The notes under the pieces were generated by a model. That model saw nothing but the letters and a program-made list of their open reading frames with translations. It did not search any database and was not told the origin of the DNA. This document shows positions 2,909-31,748 of a DNA stretch of 31,748 nt, one piece after another. The stretch covers positions 1 to 31,748 of the IMG/VR virus record IMGVR_UViG_3300024581_003596; one strand, written 5' to 3'. Position numbers and translations under genes: made by a program. Position 1 is the first letter of the stretch. Each line of letters begins with the position of its first letter. Origin of the DNA: a virus.

Positions 2909-4672
2909 TTATCCTTTATAGTTTGGGTGATGTCCATTATTTGGCATATCTTTTGGTGCTATCTTAGAATCTCTATTTCCTGACGGAGATGGCTTATATT
3001 GACTAGGTATTGAACTAACTTCATCAGAACTGCTTAAAGCTTTATCTTCATAATAAGTACCATCTGCTTTTTTCTTTAGTCGATAGAGTTGCTCAGTCCA
3101 TACATGTCCACAATTAACTCCGCCTTTGAAGCGAAATAAACTATAATTCTGACCTTTATGACCGAATGAATTATTTACTCCTTGAAAAGATGCCATATCT
3201 ATATCTTCTTTGCGATATACTACACCACTTCTTGTTCTATTCATCATTTTTTTACAAAAATCTCTTGAATTATCTGAAGTATATTTTTCTGTGTATTTGT
3301 ATCTAACCTTATAGATCGATTTATCTAATGAACTTTTTCTATTAGGATAGCTTTTAATAATATCAGAAAGCTTCTGTAAAGTGCTTTTATTTTTATTCTC
3401 TACGTTTTCTATCCAATTATTTAAATTAGCATTTTCTTCACTATATTCTCTTTCATCTATAAGCTCATATATTTCACTTATTTCTTCTCCTTGTAAATGT
3501 TCAAGTATATGATCTCCTTCAGCATCAGAAAAATCTTTTTTTAATTCAACATTAGATTCTTCTTCTTCTTGATCATCATTATTTTCTAAATCAGTAAATT
3601 CTAAAGGCTTTAATGTTTTAAAATATAAAGTCAAGCTTACTTCATTATATGCTAGTATTTCGTCAAAGGCATCGATCAATAATTCTCTAAAAGGATTTAT
3701 AACCATGTTTTCAAACAATATAAAGCTATCTCTTAACTCATCAGCATTAGAACTAAATCCATTGCTACTTGCTATTCCAAATAATAAAGGAGAAGTTATC
3801 TGATGTCCTAACATGATCTTTCTAAGACATTCTTCTGCTAATGTAGAATATAAATCTGGTGCATCATTTACTGGCATAGAATCAACTGTTGTAGCTGATT
3901 CACTATTATTATTAAAAGAAATTATGACTTTCTCACCATGTGTTCCAGTTAATTGATTAAGCACTTTAGATTTAATCATCTGCTTTTCTTCTTGAGATGG
4001 CTGACCGTTATTAAAGTTGATCAAAACACGACCGCTAAAGCCTGAATTTACTTCAGTAATTAAGTAGTCTGATATTGATTCTTCAAGAGTGCAATATGGC
4101 GTCGATCCCACATAATCTGGAAGACTATAATATTTTAAACCTACACTATATGGCTTAATTACATATAATTCTAAAGCATCATTAGAGCATCCATAAGCTG
4201 CTATTCTTTTTGGCTTATATTTTTTAATATCAGACCAATCATCAGAATAATAATAAGCTTCTATTTTACCTTCTTCATTACACTTTTCAGCACGTAAAAG
4301 CTGCACAGGCATGTGATGTACAGATGCAATTTTTTTACGATCTTTAGTATAAATTACCTGCATAGCACATTGACCAAGCATTTTAAGATCTGTGCATAAA
4401 TGTCTCACACAATCTTTACTAAATAAAGACATCATGTGGGCGTATTCATTTGGCTTTCTAGACGCATCTACTGCACTTAATCCTTTTCCATAAATTAAAC
4501 GGCTTACATTATTGATTATAGCATTATTTGTAGTGCTTTTAGTATAACAATCTATAAGAAAATTATAATAATCATTAGACTCTCCAAATTCTACCCAATC
4601 TTCACGTTTAGCTTCCTTTATTACAGGAGGCTCATAAGCTGCTAATTGCAATATATGTACATTATCACTCAT
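2909..4672 (-). CDS. Portal protein with C-terminal MuF/SPP1-gp7-like minor-head domain
   Basis: The frame is open to 4717. The MSDNVHIL start at 4672 overlaps the upstream stop by 8 nt (ATGAGTGA), which matches the genome-wide packing. Size is about 590 aa. The C-terminal segment SRDFCKKMM...FKGGVNCGHVW resembles the MuF-type Cys/His motif. The family call is from memory. Confidence 0.65.
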   Translation of the reverse strand: MSDNVHILQLAAYEPPVIKEAKREDWVEFGESNDYYNFLIDCYTKSTTNNAIINNVSRLIYGKGLSAVDASRKPNEYAHMMSLFSKDCVRHLCTDLKMLGQCAMQVIYTKDRKKIASVHHMPVQLLRAEKCNEEGKIEAYYYSDDWSDIKKYKPKRIAAYGCSNDALELYVIKPYSVGLKYYSLPDYVGSTPYCTLEESISDYLITEVNSGFSGRVLINFNNGQPSQEEKQMIKSKVLNQLTGTHGEKVIISFNNNSESATTVDSMPVNDAPDLYSTLAEECLRKIMLGHQITSPLLFGIASSNGFSSNADELRDSFILFENMVINPFRELLIDAFDEILAYNEVSLTLYFKTLKPLEFTDLENNDDQEEEESNVELKKDFSDAEGDHILEHLQGEEISEIYELIDEREYSEENANLNNWIENVENKNKSTLQKLSDIIKSYPNRKSSLDKSIYKVRYKYTEKYTSDNSRDFCKKMMNRTRSGVVYRKEDIDMASFQGVNNSFGHKGQNYSLFRFKGGVNCGHVWTEQLYRLKKKADGTYYEDKALSSSDEVSSIPSQYKPSPSGNRDSKIAPKDMPNNGHHPNYKG

Positions 4673-5401: not shown

Positions 5402-5480
5402 TGTGTGTTTTTTTAAGTGTGTTAATTATTAATTACAGTGCTAATATAGGCATAATGTATATACAAAAAAAGTTTTGCAG
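5402..5480 (-). promoter_or_regulatory. Promoter/leader cassette A: palindrome TGTATATACA (5456-5465), TAnnTTAG box (5441-5448), leader AACACACTTAAAAAAACACACA-ATG
   Basis: One of four near-identical cassettes; the others are at 19897-19965, 21868-21933 and 28180-28255. Confidence 0.55.
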
Positions 5481-5508
5481 TATTTTTTTTTGTTTTTTTT
5501 CATGTAAT

Positions 5509-5760: not shown

Positions 5761-6150
5761 TCATAAGAAAAATTGATCTTTCATATTTCGGCAGATTATT
5801 CTCGGACGTCCATAAGAAAGCAATTTTACTTGCTTATGAGTAACTACATCTTGTCTTTTTAAATTAACTACTAATTCTTGAGAAAAGAAAGTTGTTCCAT
5901 TATCTCTAGATGCATTAATTGTTGTATTCAACGCGTTAGCTGTTGATTTTAATTCATACTTGTACAAATTTAAAGCTGTAGCTGTATCTACAGGCGTCCA
6001 TGTATCAAGTTGATCTTCTTGATCTGTAGTAGTATCAAAAACAGCTGAATCTTCATTTAGATCATCGTAATTTACTATATAAATTGCTTTTAATCCAGAA
6101 ACACTATCCTTGCACTCTTCTACGCGACCGTGGCTAATCTCACATGCCAT
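5761..6150 (-). CDS. Virion structural protein encoded after the major capsid gene (possibly tail-tube or head-decoration type); ends at an in-frame TGA
   Basis: 129-aa ORF located between the hairpin that follows the capsid gene and the extension frame. No family recognised. Confidence 0.6.
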   Translation of the reverse strand: MACEISHGRVEECKDSVSGLKAIYIVNYDDLNEDSAVFDTTTDQEDQLDTWTPVDTATALNLYKYELKSTANALNTTINASRDNGTTFFSQELVVNLKRQDVVTHKQVKLLSYGRPRIICRNMKDQFFL

Positions 6151-6178
6151 AGGTATAAAATTTTTTTTGTTTATAATA

Positions 6179-6200
6179 GAGAGGGTTTTTACACCCTCTC
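6179..6200 (-). terminator. Stem-loop right after the capsid gene (attenuating terminator or mRNA stabiliser)
   Basis: Minus strand reads GAGAGGGT-GTAAAA-ACCCTCTC (8-bp stem) followed by TATTATAAAC. The U-tract is imperfect. Confidence 0.4.
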
Positions 6201-6214
6201 GTTAATTAATCATC

Positions 6215-7177
6215 TTAGTTAGCAGAATTTACGATTCCGTAAGTTACTACATCATCAACAATAGCATATTGAGCTCCTGCAGCCATTCTCATAATAATTC
6301 TAACATTATTAGAACCATCAAGATCTGACATATCTAACAATTTAACTTCTTGAAGATCACTTTGTAGTGAACATCCAAAGAATAAGTTAGATTTTTGAGC
6401 AGCTAAAGCTGTATTATCAGCAAGACCATTTGCCATGAAGATTTTAACACCGTCAAAAGTTAATGCTCCATTGTCATACCATTGAGTACCTTGAGCATTA
6501 GTACCATTAGCACCTAATCCAGAAGCACCAAAACCGCCCAAAGCTCTAATATAAGCTCTTGCAATATTTTGTGACACATAAATGTGAAGATCCTCAGCAC
6601 CATAGACTGTTGATGGAAGAGCATCGATTATACTTCCTAGCTCATCGATAACGTTCGCAGCAGTCACCGTAGTTCCAGCAACTTCTTGTGCAGCTGGTAA
6701 ATCTGCATCTACAGCTAATTGTGTCATGATACCATCATATTCACCTGATGTTCCTGTAGCTCCTCTCCAGAAATTTACTTCATTTCTAGCAGCAACTTTA
6801 GAAGCAACATATCCAAGAATATAATCTTCAAAAGATTTAGGTAAAGTATCAAAGCTTGAATATCCTTGCTCAATTCCTTGCCATGTATTATGAAAGTCAT
6901 TTTTGCAAATTTCAAGATTTACCATAAGATCTTTAACTTCAAGAACTCTTTCAGACAATGTGATAGCATCATCTGTTCTAGTAAAGTCACATGTAGCATC
7001 TGCTAAAACGTCTGTCAATGCAACTTTCTGCATGATCTGCTTAAATTTAATATTTGGAAGGATTTCAACTCCTCCTCTTTCAATAGTTGGGGCGCTTAAA
7101 AGAGCGGCCGCCACGTACTTACCTGCGAATTCACCTGCGTAAGTAGTAGTAATTGATGTAATTGATTTTTCTGCCAT
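6215..7177 (-). CDS. Major capsid protein, HK97 fold
   Basis: 320-aa ORF directly after an acidic scaffold gene. Size, Ala/Gly-rich composition and the segment LEVKDLMVNLEICKNDF are typical of HK97-type capsid proteins. Confidence 0.75.
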   Translation of the reverse strand: MAEKSITSITTTYAGEFAGKYVAAALLSAPTIERGGVEILPNIKFKQIMQKVALTDVLADATCDFTRTDDAITLSERVLEVKDLMVNLEICKNDFHNTWQGIEQGYSSFDTLPKSFEDYILGYVASKVAARNEVNFWRGATGTSGEYDGIMTQLAVDADLPAAQEVAGTTVTAANVIDELGSIIDALPSTVYGAEDLHIYVSQNIARAYIRALGGFGASGLGANGTNAQGTQWYDNGALTFDGVKIFMANGLADNTALAAQKSNLFFGCSLQSDLQEVKLLDMSDLDGSNNVRIIMRMAAGAQYAIVDDVVTYGIVNSAN

Positions 7178-7181
7178 TTTT

Positions 7182-7823
7182 TTATTTATTTAATTTTTCA
7201 AATATATTATCCATAAGTGTTTTTGGTCTATTGGCACTAAACTTAAACACTTCTTTTTCTTCTTTATTTTCAGGATTATGAGCAATAGGCTCAGTCGCTG
7301 GTTCTAATGTTTCAGCTTCTAAATTTACTCCGTTTTCTGATTCTTCTTTCTTATCTTCTGTTATGTCAGGCTTAGATAGTAATTCGATCTCAGCTTTAAG
7401 ATCTTCATTTTCTTTTTTCAAAGCTTCAATTTCAGTAAAAAATGTTTCTTTTACTATAGATTCAACAGTCTTTTTGACTGGTTTTTTCTCCTCTGCCATT
7501 TCCTCTTCTTTTTCTTCATATCCAGCTTCTTCTTTCTCCTCTTCTTCTTCCATTTTTTTATCTTCTTCTGCTTCTTCTGCTTCTTTAATTTGAGCAATAA
7601 TACCTTCTTGCTGTACAATTAATAGTTGACCATCTTCCATTTTATATTCACCTACAGGTAAAGCTATTTTTTGCTCATCTTCAGTTACTATAAATATTTC
7701 TGCTTCTGGTTCGAAAGCATCTGCTTCTACTACTGTAACACCATCTTCTAATTTACGCTGCTCAAGTTCTATTGGCATGCCTAATAGTGTTCTTACTTTG
7801 TTTAAAACTGTATTCGTGTTCAT
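7182..7823 (-). CDS. Scaffolding protein
   Basis: 213-aa ORF, highly acidic and helical, with an E/K-rich run (EEAEEAEEDKKMEEEEEKEEAGYEEKEEEMAEEKK). It lies immediately upstream of the capsid gene. Confidence 0.65.
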   Translation of the reverse strand: MNTNTVLNKVRTLLGMPIELEQRKLEDGVTVVEADAFEPEAEIFIVTEDEQKIALPVGEYKMEDGQLLIVQQEGIIAQIKEAEEAEEDKKMEEEEEKEEAGYEEKEEEMAEEKKPVKKTVESIVKETFFTEIEALKKENEDLKAEIELLSKPDITEDKKEESENGVNLEAETLEPATEPIAHNPENKEEKEVFKFSANRPKTLMDNIFEKLNK

Positions 7824-7891
7824 GCTAAAATGTTATTATTTTATATACTAACTACATTATAAAAAATCTGTTTCATTTTCAATATAAAAAG

Positions 7892-8251
7892 TTAAGGATT
7901 TTGAGTTTGACAATCAGCACAATCACTATATAATGTAGCTGATAATATTTTTAAACCTCCTGAAGATGTATCGCTACTTACAGTATAACAACCATCGTAA
8001 TTAGAATTTTGAAATTTAACAAAATATACTGAATTTAATGTTAATGTTTCTCCTTCAATATGAACATTATATCTTTTGCTATTTTCGCAATGTTCTAAAA
8101 TATACTTATTAGCACTATTTGGCACTTCAGCATTTACATTGCCTATTCCTTGAGCCCATAAGCTTCCATCGCAACATTTAGTGCTATATGTTCCATCTTT
8201 ACATAGACAAGCTCTATTGCCTCCTAATCTTCCAGATCTACTTGTTTTCAA
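7892..8251 (-). CDS. Cysteine-rich small protein of the head module
   Basis: 119-aa ORF with 8 Cys (CLC, CC, HC, GC, DCADC). It overlaps the protease gene by 14 nt. Confidence 0.55.
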   Translation of the reverse strand: MKTSRSGRLGGNRACLCKDGTYSTKCCDGSLWAQGIGNVNAEVPNSANKYILEHCENSKRYNVHIEGETLTLNSVYFVKFQNSNYDGCYTVSSDTSSGGLKILSATLYSDCADCQTQNP

Positions 8252-9122
8252 TTTCTTTTAGTTTAGATTCTGCCCATCTTTTTCCTGCTTTACCTCCCCA
8301 TAGTAAATAGCTTATATATCCACAATCTTGCTGATCACCTTTCTCATAATATACTTCGGCCCTGCTTAAATAAGAATACATCCGCTTAATTGTTTGTACA
8401 CTTACTGGCTCTTTATTTGCCAACTGCTGTGCTCTTACTTTACCGACTTGAGTAGCACATTTATTATTTACTTTCTTATTTAATTCTATGCCTCTCTTAG
8501 CATTATTACTTACTGCTTGAGGATAATCTCTATATGACTCTGCTTTAATGTCTAAAAGATCTCTTAATGCTTCTACAATTTCTTCTTTATGATCATCTTT
8601 TTTTCCAAAATCATATCTATCGGCAAAATATCCTTCAATGCTAAATCCACGAACAGATCCATTTTTTGCTTTTTTATAAAGCTCATCATCATCTATTTTA
8701 GCTGATACCATCCATGTACCTACAGGCACTTCCATTCCATATAAAGCAGTTTTATCTTTTTCAGTATTTTCTACTATCCATGACTCAACAAATGTGACAC
8801 CATTAATTTTGTCTTTATGTTCAAAAGTAGCATTCTTATGATTAGACTTTTTAAAGAATAATTCTGATGCTTTTCTTACTGTTTTTTTACTAAAATATAT
8901 ATAGTATTCTTCTCCAGCATCATTACGTCTGTAGATACTTTTATCTGGTATTAGAGCTGCACCCATTAAAAGACGTTTTTCTGCGTCTATTTCTTTTAAA
9001 AATAATTCATGTTTATTTAAAGCAATAAAATTGCTTTCTATCGCTGGTTGTTCTACTAGTGATATCGCATCAATTCCAGATGCTTCATCATTCTCATCAA
9101 TTATTAATTCTATTATCTTCAT
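8238..9122 (-). CDS. Prohead protease, XkdF-like, with conserved C-terminal domain
   Basis: 294-aa ORF. Matches the XkdF-like pattern as I recall it: LVEQPAIESNFIAL, LLMGAALIPDK, YYIYFSKKTVRK, NATFEHK, FVESWIVE. The C-terminus (YPQAVSNNAKRG ... LLWGGKAGKRWAESK) is common in phage head proteins. Confidence 0.55.
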   Translation of the reverse strand: MKIIELIIDENDEASGIDAISLVEQPAIESNFIALNKHELFLKEIDAEKRLLMGAALIPDKSIYRRNDAGEEYYIYFSKKTVRKASELFFKKSNHKNATFEHKDKINGVTFVESWIVENTEKDKTALYGMEVPVGTWMVSAKIDDDELYKKAKNGSVRGFSIEGYFADRYDFGKKDDHKEEIVEALRDLLDIKAESYRDYPQAVSNNAKRGIELNKKVNNKCATQVGKVRAQQLANKEPVSVQTIKRMYSYLSRAEVYYEKGDQQDCGYISYLLWGGKAGKRWAESKLKEIENK

Positions 9123-21867: not shown

Positions 21868-21933
21868 TTTTTAAGTGTTTATTAATTAATTATGATGCTA
21901 ATCTACTAAAAACGTATATACAAAAAAAGTTTT
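21868..21933 (-). promoter_or_regulatory. Promoter/leader cassette C: CGTATATACA (21913-21922), TAGATTAG box (21898-21905), leader TAATTAATTAATAAACACTTAAAAA-ATG
   Basis: Read directly. Cassettes C and A share the 24-nt string GTATATACAAAAAAAGTTTT on the plus strand. Confidence 0.55.
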
Positions 21934-22449
21934 TTACAAGTTTTTTTTCTTTTTTTTATAAATTTCTATGATCTCTTTTAGATCTTCTCTTGTATACTTT
22001 CTGATTTTATGAGCTTCTTCATGCAGCTTTATTAATTCATCTGCACCTATTCTTTTTTGTATACCGATTTGATAATTTAAAAGGTTACCATGCAGATCTC
22101 TATTGCACCTTACACATTGCCCATGAACATTATTTTCATTAAAAGTAGTATTTTTATGAGTAGAGCTAAAATAATGACCTGCATCATATTTTGATCCTAA
22201 TGGTTTATTACAGCTTACGCATCCTTTACCTTTATCTCTTGCTCTTATAAAAGCATTAAAATATCTCTGCGCTTTCTTAGTAAGGCTTTGAACAGTTTCT
22301 AATTCAGCTTTCAAACGTTTTTTTTCTTTTTTCCAATTATCTTCTTTTGCTTTATTATACCATATTTTTGCACACTGTTCTTTAAAACAATATTTTTGAT
22401 TAAAATGTACTGCTTCAAATTTTTCTTTACAATGTTTACAGCGCGGCAT
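21934..22449 (-). CDS. NinG/Rap-like recombination endonuclease
   Basis: 171-aa ORF with Cys clusters: CKHCKEKF...YCFKEQC, then FIRARDKGKGCVSCNKPL...DAGHYFS...NVHGQCVRCN. This matches the NinG pattern as I recall it. Confidence 0.55.
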   Translation of the reverse strand: MPRCKHCKEKFEAVHFNQKYCFKEQCAKIWYNKAKEDNWKKEKKRLKAELETVQSLTKKAQRYFNAFIRARDKGKGCVSCNKPLGSKYDAGHYFSSTHKNTTFNENNVHGQCVRCNRDLHGNLLNYQIGIQKRIGADELIKLHEEAHKIRKYTREDLKEIIEIYKKKKKNL

Positions 22450-22742: not shown

Positions 22743-23602
22743 TGTCTTAATTTTCTTAATGGATCTACTTCATATAATTTAAACCCTAAGCCATTGTTAA
22801 AGTCGCAAAAAATATAATCATCTAAAAGTGTTTGCTTACCTCCTGAGCTTACATCTTTAATTTTATCAACTGATATTAAAGTTACATATTTCATTGAATC
22901 ATGTTTAACTAGTCTATGTATTGTTAAAAATGAATCTGTTCTATTCAGCCAAGATTTACCACCTTCTACATGTGCTGCCATAGGAGGTTTAAGATGGCCT
23001 TCCCACATATGGCCTTTTGGAAATATATTTCCTGTTCTTCCACTTTCAGATGTAGGATGAGTATTTACATAAACACTTTTTTTTGTTTCATTTACATACT
23101 GCCTTATCATATTTAGAAATTCATAATTTGCTTCATATCCAAATTTACGATTTAAAGCTGTAAATGGATCTATTAAAAAGGCATCTGCTGAAGACTTATT
23201 AAATTCTTCTATTAATTTTTCAGGAGTATATAATTTTGAATTATCTATAAAATCAAAATACTGTTCAATATAAGCTGCATATGACATGATTTCTTGATCA
23301 TTTAATTCATTAAATTTTCTGCCTGCATACATTTGTATTAGATCTCTCATAATTTGGCCATATTGATTTTCGGCTGCATATATGCAAAATTTAAGATCAT
23401 GCTTTAATGCTACTGTCAAAAAATACCAAAATATCCAATAGCTTTTTCCTACATTATCATGCCCGCAAATAATTGTTAATTCACCAGGTTTAAATACATA
23501 ATAATCATCTAGCATACAATCAATTCCTAGGCCTTGTTTTATTCTACCATGTTTGTAATCTAGTAAGTATTTAGTATGAATTCCCTTATTTAACATATCC
23601 AT
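22739..23602 (-). CDS. DnaB-C-terminal/RecA-fold P-loop ATPase (replicative helicase or helicase-loader-like)
   Basis: 287-aa ORF. Walker [10 protein letters not shown], Walker B-like AFLIDPF. It follows the replisome-organiser gene. Confidence 0.55.
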
Positions 23603-24203: not shown

Positions 24204-24626
24204 TTAAAATAATTTTTGCTGTAATAAATCTTTAGCATATACAAAGCATGATTTTTCTTCTTTCCAACTTTGCTTTGCTAAATTAAGAATTTGTTCCTTA
24301 ACATAAATACTTTCAATATAAGCAACTTTATCATGTATCTGTATAAAAACATAATAGTCAGCTTTTAAATGCTCATTAAGATCATCTAAATAGCAATTAA
24401 ATGTAAATGTTCTTGCTCTTGTTGCTTTAACTTGATAAGTATATCCTTTTTCATCTGCATAATCAATACCTTGAAAATCTCGATCTGCTTTTTGTTTATG
24501 TAAATGCTCAGCAAAATATGTTCTTTTAAACCATATTTCAAAAAGCTTTTCACCGATTACTCCTGTATTTAAATTAGAATTTAAACAAATTTGAGGTATT
24601 TCTATTTTTGCTAAATATGTTCTCAT
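24204..24626 (-). CDS. PD-(D/E)XK-like putative nuclease
   Basis: 140-aa ORF. GVIGEKLFEIW ... DFQGIDYADEKGYTYQVKAT fits an E...D...(E/Q)xK arrangement. This is a weak motif-only call. Confidence 0.35.
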   Translation of the reverse strand: MRTYLAKIEIPQICLNSNLNTGVIGEKLFEIWFKRTYFAEHLHKQKADRDFQGIDYADEKGYTYQVKATRARTFTFNCYLDDLNEHLKADYYVFIQIHDKVAYIESIYVKEQILNLAKQSWKEEKSCFVYAKDLLQQKLF

Positions 24627-24958
24627 TTTTCTTCTTTTATAAATGTTCCATTAACCATCTTTCCTTTTCTTTTATTGATTACCATATAAGCTGTATTTAT
24701 AGCGTATTCAATTGTAATGCGACTAACAGCCCCACCATTAAAATGCTTATCTGCTAGCTCTGCAATTGACGTTAAAACAACAGCACAATCTCCTATAGCA
24801 TCTATTATTTCAAATTCATCATTATTTAAGACTGCTTTGGATAATTCTCCAGCTTCTTCATGCAGTTTTAAAACCTGTGTTTTAAGATCTCCTTTTTCAT
24901 AGATTCCTTTTTCTTTTGCCCACTTTCTTATAGGCTCAAATTCATTATTTAAATTCAT
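24623..24958 (-). CDS. MazG-like all-alpha nucleoside-triphosphate pyrophosphohydrolase
   Basis: 111-aa ORF. KLHEEAGELSKAV and EIIDAIGDCAVVL match the EExxE...DxxGD metal-binding helices of MazG-like enzymes. Confidence 0.7.
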   Translation of the reverse strand: MNLNNEFEPIRKWAKEKGIYEKGDLKTQVLKLHEEAGELSKAVLNNDEFEIIDAIGDCAVVLTSIAELADKHFNGGAVSRITIEYAINTAYMVINKRKGKMVNGTFIKEEK

Positions 24959-25596
24959 TGTTTTTTATTTATAAAGTTATTATATAAGTGAATATTATTT
25001 GCGAAATGATAATACTGTCCTGGTTGAATATTTAGTTCATTAGAGATCATCTTTAATAGCTTACTAAAAAAATATTGATCATTACAAAAACCAAACCATA
25101 AATCATTAGATCTCATCATTACATTCATGTTAAGCTTATCTTCTAAAATATAGAAATGTATTGCATATGTGCAAGGAGTATCATTTTCAAAATTCCACCT
25201 GTTTTTTGCATCATATATACTTATGGCCGCTCTTCTTGTATATGGATTTTTTCTTAATTCTTCAATAACATATCCTATTTGATCATTTTGTTTCCAATGC
25301 CATCCATAATTACTATTGACTTCACCATTTTCATCCATACATTTTTTCCAAATTTTAGCTTTTTTTGATATTTCTATTCCTGATCGATCACCTGATAAAT
25401 ACCACTGCCATTCAAAATCAGCATATTTTATATTCCAATTTCTCCATGACGTTCTAATTAAATTATCAAGTGGATTTTTTATAGTAAAACCAACATTAAA
25501 TAATGCCATAGTTCCATTATAATCATAACCATTATTGCTGATATTTTCATATAGATAAATAAAAGCTTGATCTGCGTTTTTAAAATAAAGATCCAT
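24955..25596 (-). CDS. Thymidylate-synthase-fold deoxypyrimidylate C5-modifying enzyme, dCMP-hydroxymethylase-like
   Basis: 213-aa ORF. Motifs seen: FEWQWYLSG, NSNYGWHW, TRRAAISIYD, catalytic Cys in TPCTYAIHFY, MRSNDLWFGFCNDQYF, NNIHLY. The residue equivalent to ThyA Asn177 / T4 gp42 Asp179 aligns to Asp. Confidence 0.65.
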   Translation of the reverse strand: MDLYFKNADQAFIYLYENISNNGYDYNGTMALFNVGFTIKNPLDNLIRTSWRNWNIKYADFEWQWYLSGDRSGIEISKKAKIWKKCMDENGEVNSNYGWHWKQNDQIGYVIEELRKNPYTRRAAISIYDAKNRWNFENDTPCTYAIHFYILEDKLNMNVMMRSNDLWFGFCNDQYFFSKLLKMISNELNIQPGQYYHFANNIHLYNNFINKKQ

Positions 25597-26383
25597 TGTT
25601 TTTCTTTTTAAGTTTCCATAATGTGTTTCTTGACTGCTCTGGAAAAAATGGCGCCATTAAATTAGCTACTAAACATGGCATATGATATTTCTTTAATTCA
25701 TCAAACATGTTTTTTTGCCATTCATTCATAAATGGTTTATAGTCTCTTACTGAAGCAAATGTTCCAAAAGTATCTACAATTACAGCATGCTTAGAAAAAA
25801 GCTCTTTTAATTCATTATAGCTAAATTCTTGAATTGCTATGCCTCTACCATCTCCTGAATCATATGTATGATTATTGGCAGCTCCAACTTTTTCATCATA
25901 ATTAGGTGTTGATATATAGAATAAAGCATCTGGTTTTCCACAGTCTAAAAAGTTTTTCATAAACTTATCAGCATTCTGCTTTCCTACATGTTCTAAAACT
26001 TCAAATGAAACTACTCTATCTGCTTTAATAGATTTAAAATCTGTATTATTTTGAGGATTTACAAGATCTTCTACTATAAACTTTGCCCAATCTAATTCTT
26101 TAAGCTTTTCTTTAAATTTATCTCTAATATCTATTCCTATATAATTAGTTACTTCATCTTTGTTTTTTCTAAATAAGCAATTTCTATAAATTACTTCTAA
26201 TAAGTTACCACTGCCACAACCAAAATCGCATACAGTTTCACCCTTTTTTAATTCTTTTATAATATGACTCCATCTCAAATAATGAGCAAATTGATCTCTA
26301 TGAAAAACATGTCTTTCAAATGATCTTTCTGGATTAAGATCGGTCGTGTTATAATTTTTCTTGTCTAATTTTTGTCTATTCAT
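25580..26383 (-). CDS. Class I SAM-dependent methyltransferase, small-molecule (UbiG/Methyltransf_23-like) type
   Basis: 267-aa ORF. Motif I VCDFGCGSGNLLE, then YIGIDIRD, VVSFEVLEHV and FYISTPNYD. No DPPY/NPPY or PC...ENV DNA-methyltransferase motifs seen. Confidence 0.65.
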   Translation of the reverse strand: MNRQKLDKKNYNTTDLNPERSFERHVFHRDQFAHYLRWSHIIKELKKGETVCDFGCGSGNLLEVIYRNCLFRKNKDEVTNYIGIDIRDKFKEKLKELDWAKFIVEDLVNPQNNTDFKSIKADRVVSFEVLEHVGKQNADKFMKNFLDCGKPDALFYISTPNYDEKVGAANNHTYDSGDGRGIAIQEFSYNELKELFSKHAVIVDTFGTFASVRDYKPFMNEWQKNMFDELKKYHMPCLVANLMAPFFPEQSRNTLWKLKKKNNGSLF

Positions 26384-26384
26384 T

Positions 26385-26645
26385 TTATTGGTTTTTATAA
26401 TTGTTTAAAGCTGCTAAATAAGCCACTGCATCTAATAAGTTATCTTCTTTGTGATTATATGACTGTCTAGAAAGCTTTAATGCTACCATGCACATATACA
26501 TGTCATCAGCTGTTATCTTTTTACCAGTCGCCGCAGAAGCAATTACTGCAGCTCTTTCCATTCCTTCAGAAAAAGATCCATATTCTCTTTCCTTTTCTTC
26601 AGATCTTTCATTTATGATCTGATCTGCTTTTTGTAAAATATTCAT
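26385..26645 (-). CDS. Small helical protein, resembling the widespread phage family I recall as DUF6378 (often next to nucleotide-metabolism genes)
   Basis: 86-aa ORF. Pattern REYGSFSEGMERAA...ITADDMYMCMVALKLSRQSYNHKEDNLLDAVAYLA. The family name is from memory. Confidence 0.35.
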   Translation of the reverse strand: MNILQKADQIINERSEEKEREYGSFSEGMERAAVIASAATGKKITADDMYMCMVALKLSRQSYNHKEDNLLDAVAYLAALNNYKNQ

Positions 26646-26729: not shown

Positions 26730-26742
26730 AGTTACAAATATA
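26730..26742 (-). promoter_or_regulatory. Promoter of the modification/replication operon, with -7 box TATATTTG (26735-26742)
   Basis: A TAnnTTTG box lies immediately after the stop codon of the upstream gene. Confidence 0.45.
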
Positions 26743-29623: not shown

Positions 29624-30023
29624 ATTCTACTTGTACATTAAATGACGGACAAGCTTTATTTGCAAATTCATTATGTCCATGAATAGTCATATCTTTATTA
29701 TATTTATATATAAGCTCATGCATAAGATATATTAAGCTGTCTTTTTGTTCTTTAGTTCTAGTATCTTTAGCTTTTTTCATGTCTTTATCCATACCTCCGA
29801 CATAGCAAATTCCTATAGAATTTTTATTTTGACCTGAACAATGAGCTCCTTGCTTTTCTATTGGTCTTCCTTTTTCAATTCTACCATCTATATGAACAAC
29901 ATAATGATACCCAATGTCAGAGAATCCTCTTCTTAAGTGCCAAGATCTTATATCTTCAACATTATGTGGCCTTCCTTCAGGAGTAGCACTACAATGAATT
30001 ATGATCTTATTTATCTTTCTCAT
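29610..30023 (-). CDS. Endolysin, N-acetylmuramoyl-L-alanine amidase (Amidase_2/PGRP, T7-lysozyme-like)
   Basis: 137-aa ORF. IIIHCSATPEG, DIGYHYVV, NSIGICYVGG and HGHNEFANKACPSF are classic Zn-amidase motifs. Confidence 0.85.
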   Translation of the reverse strand: MRKINKIIIHCSATPEGRPHNVEDIRSWHLRRGFSDIGYHYVVHIDGRIEKGRPIEKQGAHCSGQNKNSIGICYVGGMDKDMKKAKDTRTKEQKDSLIYLMHELIYKYNKDMTIHGHNEFANKACPSFNVQVEYANI

Positions 30024-30919: not shown

Positions 30920-31720
30920 TTATGTAGGTACATCAGTTACTCTATTTTCTTCTGCCATATTAACTCCTAAAGCATTATTACTTCCTTGTACGTCTTCTAT
31001 TGGATTCCATTCTCTGCCGTCCCAAGTTGCATTTTCGCCCATTCTGTACCAAGTTGTAGGATTTCTTGATAAGCCTATATTGTTAAGGTCATTAGGTACT
31101 CCGTTATTATAAATTGTAGCTACATCATTTCTTAAATCAGTACCACTCCATATAGCAAACTCGTCTATGTTACCCAAGAATGGATTATATTGACCACTTT
31201 GTTTTTCTCCAATATATAATGGACCTGTTGCGCTTGAAAATGTACCGCTGACTGATGTGGCAGATGTTGAATCCACTCCATTTATAAAAACTTTACCTCT
31301 TTGTGAACCTACACCTTGTGTTGTGTCAATACAATACATAACGTGAGTCCAAACATTTACATTTATAGGTGTAGAAGATGCTCTTATGTATTTAGAGGTC
31401 GAATCTATTGAAAACTGCAATGTACCTGCTGTTGTTAATTCAATTTGGAACTGATGATTAGATACGGTAGCGTTTTTAATTACTGATGCAATTATTTTAT
31501 AATTTGGTATACTTATTGGTTTTATCCAAAACGAAAAAGTAGCCTTTGTTTGTCCATCTAATTCAGAGTAAGTTGTAGCACTCTTAATATAATCATCTAC
31601 TCCGTCAAAACTAAATGAATATTGATTTTGATAACTTGGCGTACTTGCCGTTCCTGTTAAGTTGGTTTCTGGACTCCAACTTGAATAATGTATTTTACCC
31701 CAATCTATTGTATTGCTCAT
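30920..31720 (-). CDS. LamG/ConA-like lectin-fold tail fibre / receptor-binding protein, paralogue B (spans the circular junction)
   Basis: 266-aa ORF. Motifs seen: SFSFDGVDDYI, TFSFWIKP, WTHVMYCID, LGNIDEFAIWSGTDLRNDVATIYNNGVPNDL, WYRMGE. It ends in DVPT. Its first 70 nt are duplicated at 1-70. Confidence 0.7.
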   Translation of the reverse strand: MSNTIDWGKIHYSSWSPETNLTGTASTPSYQNQYSFSFDGVDDYIKSATTYSELDGQTKATFSFWIKPISIPNYKIIASVIKNATVSNHQFQIELTTAGTLQFSIDSTSKYIRASSTPINVNVWTHVMYCIDTTQGVGSQRGKVFINGVDSTSATSVSGTFSSATGPLYIGEKQSGQYNPFLGNIDEFAIWSGTDLRNDVATIYNNGVPNDLNNIGLSRNPTTWYRMGENATWDGREWNPIEDVQGSNNALGVNMAEENRVTDVPT

Positions 31721-31748
31721 TTTATTCGTTTTTATGTAGGTACGTCAC
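31651..31748. repeat. Terminal direct repeat, copy 2 (identical to 1-98)
   Basis: 98/98 nt identity read directly. Confidence 0.95.

Follow-up and report, generated by a model that had tools for sequence, protein, structure and literature searches.

The DNA analyzed here, called the window, was the whole stretch of 31,748 nt covering positions 1 to 31,748 of the viral record IMGVR_UViG_3300024581_003596 (IMG/VR), and the subject was a cluster of minus-strand genes at its positions 24,204 to 26,645. The cluster encodes a thymidylate synthase (TS) homologue, a MazG-like nucleoside triphosphate (NTP) pyrophosphatase, and a methyltransferase dependent on S-adenosylmethionine (SAM). From the active-site residues of the synthase and the company of these genes in other viruses, the balance of the evidence leans toward a 5-hydroxymethylcytosine (5hmC) pathway together with a tailoring methyltransferase that depends on it. 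Because its two ends share a 98-nt exact direct repeat (1-98 = 31651-31748), the window was taken as a circular assembly of the complete genome, 31,650 bp long.

The 213-aa TS homologue matched the family Thymidylat_synt (PF00303). In the phmmer alignments against the PDB, the window segment MRSNDLWFGFCND was aligned with MRSNDVVFGFRND of T4 gp42 and with QRSCDVFLGLPFN of Escherichia coli ThyA. The motif 'FGFCND' of the window aligned to 'FGFRND' of T4 and to 'LGLPFN' of E. coli, and MAFFT and motif extraction agreed. As the alignments to 1b49 (gp42) and to E. coli ThyA placed it there, the final Asp of the motif corresponds to Asp179 of gp42 and Asn177 of ThyA; the preliminary description of this DNA, made from the letters alone, had also put Asp and not Asn at this position. 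The register was confirmed by the deposited D179N mutant of gp42 (6l18). In E. coli numbering, the window synthase carried Asp143 ('NDTPC', Cys-3), Thr147, Asp169 ('RSND'), and Asp177, which were identical to those of T4 gp42. Furthermore, Cys146, Glu58, Trp80, Tyr94, Arg126/127, Arg166, His207, and Tyr209 were conserved. The Asp143/Thr147/Asp169/Asp177 signature was present in 83/83 phage synthase homologues, most of them encoded beside the methyltransferase.

The meaning of these positions has been studied previously. At position 177, Asn goes with deoxyuridine monophosphate (dUMP) and Asp with deoxycytidine monophosphate (dCMP), and positions 177 and 147 were those best separating the synthases of cytosine-modified contigs from the others (PMC8670742). 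In addition, N177D led to dCMP specificity, L143D/E to a hydroxymethyl product, and D169N to a 5-hydroxy product; an acidic residue at 143 accompanies hydroxymethyl products and a bulky hydrophobic one methyl products, gp42 and MilA having Asp143, and Asn169 is the hallmark of the recently discovered 5-hydroxy-dCMP synthases, which depend on flavin (PMC13326640). The window enzyme is predicted to be a cytosine-specific 5-hydroxymethyl-dCMP (5hm-dCMP) synthase of the hydroxymethylase type. It is also predicted to be folate-dependent and to give a hydroxymethyl, not a hydroxy, product, because D169N is absent and Asp169 is retained. A dCMP methylase is unlikely on these residues, and the 5-methyl-dC that had earlier been proposed as one possible product was disfavored by Asp143.

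The earlier statement that the protein follows gp42 more closely than ThyA held for the active-site signature and failed for the overall scores. In phmmer, a bacterial ThyA (6auj) scored 81.8 bits and gp42 scored 63.2 bits. In BLASTP, the protein shared 30.8% identity with gp42 over 156 aa and 23.7% with E. coli ThyA over 207 aa. By these comparisons, the likeness to gp42 resides in the active-site signature and not in overall similarity. The protein was a short form, ending a few residues past the H-x-Y motif, and the approximately 50 C-terminal residues of ThyA were missing. In ThyA, these residues close the active site for hydride transfer. Two other identities were considered for the protein and rejected. 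It was not a bona fide ThyA, since Asp177, Thr147, and Asp143 replace Asn177, His147, and Leu143, the best NCBIfam ThyA model gave 79.6 bits against a cut-off of 327, and the C-terminus was short. It was also not a 5-hydroxy-dCMP synthase of the RB69 gp48 type, which has a diagnostic Asn169; Asp169 was kept in the window protein and in its 83 homologues, and for the same reason 5-hydroxycytosine followed by O-methylation (5-methoxycytosine) was discarded. The cultured Bacteroides fragilis phage BF486P2 (OP172667) was found to carry two TS homologues (3168-3929 and 6001-6681) and a dUTPase, with no methyltransferase. One of its TS homologues shared 48% identity with the window protein and the second was divergent (Leu58, Tyr80, Gln127), but both had Asp177.

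The 267-aa protein was a class I small-molecule methyltransferase and not a DNA methyltransferase, as had been proposed from its motifs. It matched Methyltransf_23 with 61.9 bits against a cut-off of 27, and the glycine-rich SAM motif was present. A regular-expression search of the protein found no (D/N/S)PP(Y/F/W), PCQ, or ENV motif of DNA methyltransferases, and the Pfam model N6_N4_Mtase reached E = 0.025 with no stretch passing alone. The AlphaFold2 model (pLDDT 84.6) showed alternating beta and alpha elements and was Rossmann-like. With this model, Foldseek returned approximately 1000 methyltransferase matches at E <= 0.001, which were generic class I small-molecule enzymes with TM values of about 0.5, and N-methyltransferases and cyclopropane synthases were at the top. 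A profile of seven diverse members searched against the PDB matched juvenile-hormone acid O-methyltransferase (JHAMT), bacterial Hen1, phosphoethanolamine N-methyltransferase (PEAMT), cyclopropane-fatty-acid (CFA) synthase, and UbiG, with E from 1e-12 to 1e-6.

Outside the SAM site, the invariant polar residues of the family were an N-terminal H-R-D-x3-H-x2-R-W motif, E128/E131/H132, N171/H172, and R252/N253. Several of them are basic and may serve to bind a substrate with a phosphate group. The identification as a Hen1 RNA 3'-terminal 2'-O-methyltransferase was rejected, with 28.5 bits to TIGR04074 against a cut-off of 340. The likeness to Hen1 extended no further than the E-x-x-E-H and STPN motifs and the methyltransferase core. 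Because these two motifs also occur in UbiG-type enzymes, the Hen1-like metal site was not counted as evidence for O-methylation.

The distribution of the methyltransferase was investigated in two sets of loci: one anchored on the methyltransferase (the best 80 of at least 504 IMG/VR relatives, with neighbors taken within about 5 kb) and one anchored on the synthase (the 80 closest viral loci). The synthase stood beside the methyltransferase in 78/80 loci of the first set, the other two being contig ends, and no methyltransferase locus with enough flanking sequence was without a synthase. The other neighbors in this set were DUF6378 (72/80), dCMP deaminase (11/80), and either a MazG-like (31/80) or a dUTPase-family (48/80) protein, which never occurred together in the listed loci; this looks like a non-homologous replacement of the same function. 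In the synthase-anchored set, a pyrophosphatase was present in 77/80 loci and DUF6378 in 51/80, and the methyltransferase in only 5/80 (about 6%). The gene order differed among close relatives. The preliminary description had made its reading depend on a genomic tie between the methyltransferase and nucleotide-metabolism genes, and such an adjacency was found almost always.

The same association was observed in the other collections. In the GenBank phage collection, methyltransferase homologues with 27-31% identity occurred in five records only, belonging to different phage lineages with different gene order, and the synthase adjoined in 5/5. Among 185,579 GTDB species-representative genomes, there were five full-length relatives, all on contigs of metagenome-assembled genomes of 3.8-41 kb; two had the synthase beside the methyltransferase, a third had a pyrophosphatase and a kinase, and two contigs ended right after the methyltransferase. 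Two NCBI metagenome contigs also paired the synthase with the methyltransferase, and one of them (L172) had ThyX as well. With at least 504 loci in IMG/VR and 827 clusters of proteins, the family is large; it was essentially virus-restricted and was found essentially only beside such synthases.

The methyltransferase almost never occurred without the synthase, and the synthase usually occurred without the methyltransferase, which is what would be expected of an optional enzyme acting on the synthase product. Judged from these patterns, the methyltransferase would be a virus-restricted accessory enzyme that relies on the synthase, and its most plausible target is 5hmC. Where relatives lack the methyltransferase, three open reading frames (ORFs) of about 300 aa often stood in its place between DUF6378 and the synthase, for instance in the IMG/VR relatives L114 (4276-7017), L120 (4312-7017), and L163 (4297-6989). 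The last of the three was a pyridoxal phosphate (PLP)-dependent (PALP) enzyme, and the first matched PHROGs 13881 and 17781. This cassette is a candidate for a different hypermodification of hydroxymethylcytosine, and its occurrence in the same slot fits a variable tailoring position.

The five GenBank records were Stenotrophomonas phage AXL3 (two records), Pseudoxanthomonas phage PW916 (L017 in our set), and two Manatee Spring virome genomes. The order was methyltransferase, NTP pyrophosphatase, TS homologue, and dCMP deaminase in 5/5, with a kinase between the pyrophosphatase and the TS homologue in AXL3 and MW202510. Alignment of the TS homologues from AXL3 and MW202510 revealed the same Asp143/Thr147/Asp169/Asp177 signature in both. 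The AXL3 locus lies at 5974-9116 of MT536174 (gp27-gp31). These clusters resembled that of the window in having a methyltransferase homologous over its full length beside an NTP pyrophosphatase and a TS homologue. They differed in carrying a kinase and a dCMP deaminase, in the long form of the synthase (266-269 aa), and in DUF6378, which was not detected there; AXL3 also possessed ThyX and its own DNA polymerase. Since some phages (AXL3 and the phage of contig L172) carry ThyX besides the synthase, the synthase is not needed there for deoxythymidine monophosphate (dTMP).

The AXL3 and PW916 clusters are annotated as ordinary thymidylate metabolism, and the AXL3 authors interpreted theirs as ordinary dTMP synthesis (PMC7504290). 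In the same study, AXL3 DNA was left uncut by all 35 enzymes with G or C in the recognition site and was cut by just two cutters of A/T-only sites (PMC7504290).

The MazG-like protein of the window matched Pfam MazG (PF03819) with 23.2 bits against a cut-off of 22, PHROG 1992 with E = 7e-30, and PHROG 715 with E = 9e-28. The metal-binding motif EExxE...ExxD was seen in its translation, and a PDB sequence search with this protein gave no relative. The T4 dCTPase gp56 belongs, by annotation, to the dUTPase family. In a previous study, the TS domain co-occurred with a PRA-PH pyrophosphatase on cytosine-modified contigs (PMC8670742). The putative dCTPase role of the MazG-like protein was derived from these observations: the near-universal pairing with the synthase, the dUTPase-family replacement elsewhere, and the PRA-PH/TS co-occurrence. 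The earlier suggestion that a MazG-like protein supplies dCMP was strengthened by the 77/80 pairing and by the dUTPase-family gene found in its place in other loci, and it keeps the standing of a prediction.

Taken in order, the proposed pathway would run as follows. The MazG-like pyrophosphatase would convert deoxycytidine triphosphate (dCTP) to dCMP, and the short TS homologue, as predicted from its four signature residues, would convert dCMP and methylene-tetrahydrofolate to 5hm-dCMP. The modified nucleotide would then be phosphorylated by host kinases and incorporated by the host replisome, both of which would be needed because no phage kinase or polymerase was found. Trace incorporation of modified dC without a phage kinase has been described (Lee et al. 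2026, PMC13326640). The methyltransferase would methylate the 5-hydroxymethylcytosine product, either on the nucleotide or on DNA. Its likeliest target would be the hydroxyl, giving 5-methoxymethylcytosine, in parallel to the glucosyl, arabinosyl, and carbamoyl transfer of other phages. The pyrimidine hypermodifications of phages that have been reviewed were all made by group transfer onto a pre-existing hydroxyl (PMC13326640), and O-methylation is for that reason the version most in line with known phage chemistry. That this phage, hundreds of uncultured Bacteroidota-type phages (marine, gut, and other), AXL3, and PW916 carry 5-methoxymethylcytosine is put forward tentatively, as a possible rather than a probable consequence of the gene content.

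Several points weigh against the proposed pathway. Most related phages are without the methyltransferase, hence the pathway does not need it. Many phages whose DNA is unmodified also have MazG-like proteins, the specificity of which is not readable from sequence. No deoxynucleoside monophosphate (dNMP) kinase was detectable here, which T4-type pathways need, whereas the AXL3-type clusters carry one. The rule at position 143 is a published correlation and not a proven determinant. Furthermore, homology cannot separate O-, N-, and C-methylation, since JHAMT, Hen1, PEAMT, and CFA synthase score alike in the profile search and the TM values of the Foldseek matches are only about 0.5. The synthase product and the methyltransferase substrate are predictions for this phage and for all its relatives.

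The alternative that survived best, though we regard it as unlikely, was that the DNA contains plain 5-hydroxymethylcytosine and that the methyltransferase acts on N4 or N3 of cytosine or its nucleotide, or on N7 of guanine, and not on the 5-hydroxymethyl oxygen. PEAMT and mRNA cap guanine-N7 methyltransferases matched about as well as the O-methyltransferases or with only modestly weaker E-values, N-methyltransferases and cyclopropane synthases topped the Foldseek list, and one GenBank homologue is annotated as a 'capping protein'. The resistance of AXL3 covers sites with G or C, which leaves guanine possible. However, the strict dependence on a dCMP-specific synthase is hard to square with a guanine-directed enzyme, and transfer to the hydroxyl is the rule among the reviewed phage pyrimidine hypermodifications (PMC13326640). 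In addition, the invariant His/Glu cluster (E128, E131, H132, and H172) would suit the activation of a hydroxyl, a weak argument as the motif is common in the superfamily.

A second alternative takes the TS homologue for a dCMP methylase of the XP12 type, with 5-methylcytosine in the DNA and an unrelated methyltransferase. This was considered improbable, because the protein shares Asp143 with gp42 and MilA and has no bulky hydrophobic residue there, the approximately 50 C-terminal ThyA residues are missing, and the near-absolute linkage to the methyltransferase would be left unexplained. In two earlier studies cited in PMC8670742, Asp177 alone turned ThyA into a dCMP methylase (Liu & Santi 1992; Hardy & Nalivaika 1992), and full substitution with 5-methylcytosine would also account for the restriction resistance of AXL3. 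It is equally doubtful that the methyltransferase lies outside DNA-base modification, acting on RNA (Hen1-like, at the 3'-terminal ribose) or on a host metabolite and sharing only an early-operon position with the synthase: bacterial Hen1 is among its best sequence matches, small phage operons often keep their gene order by descent, and most synthase-bearing relatives have no methyltransferase, but the Hen1 model scored far below its cut-off, every methyltransferase locus with enough flank has a synthase, and the association persists at 27-31% identity over Bacteroidota-type siphophages, Stenotrophomonas and Pseudoxanthomonas phages, and a podovirus, among which gene order and pyrophosphatase type vary.

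The predicted 5hmC pathway with its tailoring methyltransferase was compared with the known systems. The 5hmC pathway of T4 consists of the gp56 dCTPase, gp42, the gp1 dNMP kinase, and alpha- and beta-glucosyltransferases. The window shares with it the synthase signature (Cys146, Asp143, Thr147, Asp169, and Asp177), a pyrophosphatase gene beside the synthase, and a group-transfer enzyme in the same cluster. Unlike T4, the pyrophosphatase of the window is MazG-like and not of the dUTPase family (which relatives of the window use), and the family scans detected neither a dNMP kinase nor a glucosyltransferase nor a DNA polymerase of the phage. The synthase of the window is the short form, 31% identical to gp42 over 156 aa, and the transferase is a SAM methyltransferase.

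The 5-hydroxy-dCMP synthases of RB69, DLP3, and RL38JI (Lee et al., Nucleic Acids Research 2026, PMC13326640) resemble the window enzyme in Asp177, the acidic residue at 143, the dCMP substrate, and a product that feeds a tailoring step, whereas their diagnostic D169N is missing in the window ('RSND'). The closest parallel was the 5-carbamoyloxymethylcytosine system that MetaGPA brought to light (Yang et al., eLife 2021, PMC8670742), in which a TS with Asp177, a PRA-PH/MazG-like pyrophosphatase, and one accessory transferase also occur together in uncultured phages. There, the accessory enzyme is an O-carbamoyltransferase acting on the 5-hydroxymethyl group, as was shown biochemically, while the SAM methyltransferase described here is known from genes alone.

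By description, the pathway can also be likened to bacimethrin biosynthesis in Clostridium botulinum, where the TS-like CMP hydroxymethylase BcmA and the SAM methyltransferase BcmC, which acts on the hydroxymethylcytosine product, are encoded together. The product of the bacimethrin pathway is an antivitamin in free-base form, and its synthesis requires a glycosidase and ThiD, neither of which is present in the window.

The core of the cluster is of a known kind, namely pre-replicative cytosine replacement by a TS homologue and a dCTPase as in the MetaGPA carbamoyltransferase system, and the methyltransferase is the new element. The preliminary description had stated that the gene set does not match the T4, SPO1, XP12, or 5-hmdU-hypermodification paradigms. 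A precedent does exist in the 5-carbamoyloxymethylcytosine architecture, and the same methyltransferase cluster was present, uninterpreted, in AXL3 and PW916. Known phage pyrimidine hypermodifications put sugars, amino acids, polyamines, or carbamoyl on a 5-hydroxymethyl or 5-hydroxy handle, and no description of SAM-dependent methyl transfer onto such a handle was found in the literature searched. In the same literature, no paper was found that gives this methyltransferase a function or that reports a methyltransferase acting on 5hmC or a methoxymethyl group in a phage. To our knowledge, 5-methoxymethylcytosine is unreported in nature.

The features of the region are listed in Table 1. Every long ORF of the window lies on the minus strand. 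The scans of the genome ORFs with PHROG and Pfam identified structural and packaging genes (portal, protease, tape measure, and terminase), lysis genes, and a lambdoid-style replication and recombination set consisting of a DnaA-C-like helix-turn-helix protein, a DnaD-like loader, a DnaB-like helicase, NinG, and an exonuclease. In agreement with the earlier observation on glycosyltransferase, dNMP kinase, and dCMP deaminase, none of these and no DNA polymerase was detected by Pfam and PHROG in the complete genome, in which several ORFs had no family match; a novel kinase may be among the latter. The portal protein shared only 33% identity with its counterpart in the marine Nonlabens phages P12024S/L, and DNA-level searches for a close cultured relative gave nothing useful. 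The genome is that of a flavobacterial-type, marine-type siphophage, and the region opens a long early/replication operon.

Table 1. Positions in the window of the genes of the cluster and of the candidate promoter element.
Feature	Positions	Strand	Length	Basis
Candidate Bacteroidota -7 promoter element, TAtaTTTG	26735-26742	-		Position in the 97-nt intergenic gap that precedes the operon
DUF6378 protein, five-helix, first operon gene	26385-26645	-	86 aa	PF19905, 54 bits against a cut-off of 27.1, E = 2e-14
Virus-restricted class I SAM-dependent methyltransferase, putative accessory tailoring enzyme	25580-26383	-	267 aa	Methyltransf_23, E = 8e-17
TS homologue, predicted dCMP hydroxymethylase (5hm-dCMP synthase)	24955-25596	-	213 aa	PF00303, E = 3e-28, and active-site signature
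MazG-like all-alpha NTP pyrophosphohydrolase, candidate dCTPase supplying dCMP	24623-24958	-	111 aa	Pfam MazG, PHROG
Member of a narrow family of phage proteins, possible PD-(D/E)XK-like nuclease	24204-24626	-	140 aa	Invariant D55...Q65-x-K67

The five genes (26645 -> 24204) and their junctions were exactly as previously described, with one gap of 1 nt, one overlap of 17 nt, and two ATGA overlaps, and all of the quoted peptide motifs were found in the translations. The notion of a five-gene unit was not sustained. The tight junctions run on beyond 24204 through the DnaD-like loader, the helicase, a 97-aa ORF, and NinG, to 21934, and 23/44 junctions of this genome are of 5 nt or less; therefore, a five-gene module is not delimited by coupling. 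The core common to different lineages was the synthase and the pyrophosphatase. The 17-nt overlap length recurred at three junctions (25580-25596, 23586-23602, and 30007-30023).

A TAnnTTTG promoter of its own and a structured leader had also been attributed to the cluster. The TAtaTTTG site was present as claimed, and its support is positional only, since the window showed no enrichment of TAnnTTTG (46 occurrences, 52.6 expected). The structured leader or riboswitch upstream of the operon was rejected: the fold had -20.5 kcal/mol with z = -1.07, no better than shuffled sequences, 23/200 of which folded as well.

The first gene of the operon encodes the DUF6378 protein, which had 18 invariant positions in 28 sequences and an AlphaFold2 model of five helices (pLDDT 89.7). 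The profile search of the PDB with DUF6378 gave no match, the best fold match had E = 3.2, and there was no Pfam match to DUF1599 or Nmad1 at E <= 0.1. In BFVD, the domain was found in many unrelated phages (mycobacteriophages, Gordonia phages, Salmonella phage 9NA, and others), and none was detected in the clusters of AXL3 and MW202510. A role as a pathway-specific MazG-like or nucleotide-binding subunit was rejected on account of the missing PDB match, this spread, and the absence from the AXL3-type clusters. By its distribution, DUF6378 is best regarded as a widespread phage domain without link to cytosine modification, and as a conserved neighbor.

The 140-aa protein had no significant match in Pfam, PHROGs, NCBIfam, or two PDB profile searches, and its similarity to DUF6998 was below threshold (22/38 members, best E = 0.002). 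The residues D55...Q65-x-K67 were invariant in 38 homologues, with Gln where PD-(D/E)XK has Asp or Glu. The family was narrow (164 clusters) and confined to one syntenic phage lineage. In the loci with enough upstream sequence (n = 69), it lay downstream of the synthase in 69/69 and of the pyrophosphatase in 66/69. This strict linkage may be lineage synteny, which is not separable from a functional linkage. A nuclease against unmodified DNA, as proposed earlier, is speculation.

Elsewhere in the genome, an intergenic element of 79 nt occurred in two copies with 78% identity (5422-5500 and 21879-21957), both in gaps that, read along the minus strand, lie upstream of gene blocks. A possible function is that of a promoter or other regulatory element, or of a terminator. 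In addition, two paralogous ORFs of about 260 aa (82-858 and 30920-31720) matched the same part of the virion-protein PHROG 8510; they adjoin across the genome junction, and a similar 43-nt sequence precedes each.

The methyltransferase is a near-perfect marker of a neighboring dCMP hydroxymethylase gene, as predicted for these synthases. The family is present in two cultured phages, one of which has an unexplained restriction resistance, so the prediction is directly testable. If the proposed reading is true, this virus-only methyltransferase family would be a new class of DNA-base tailoring enzyme. The resulting small, chemically stable cytosine derivative would bear on how phages evade restriction and CRISPR. 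It would also matter for the reading of viromes prepared with modification-sensitive enzymes, and the methyltransferase might serve as a tool enzyme for labelling 5hmC.

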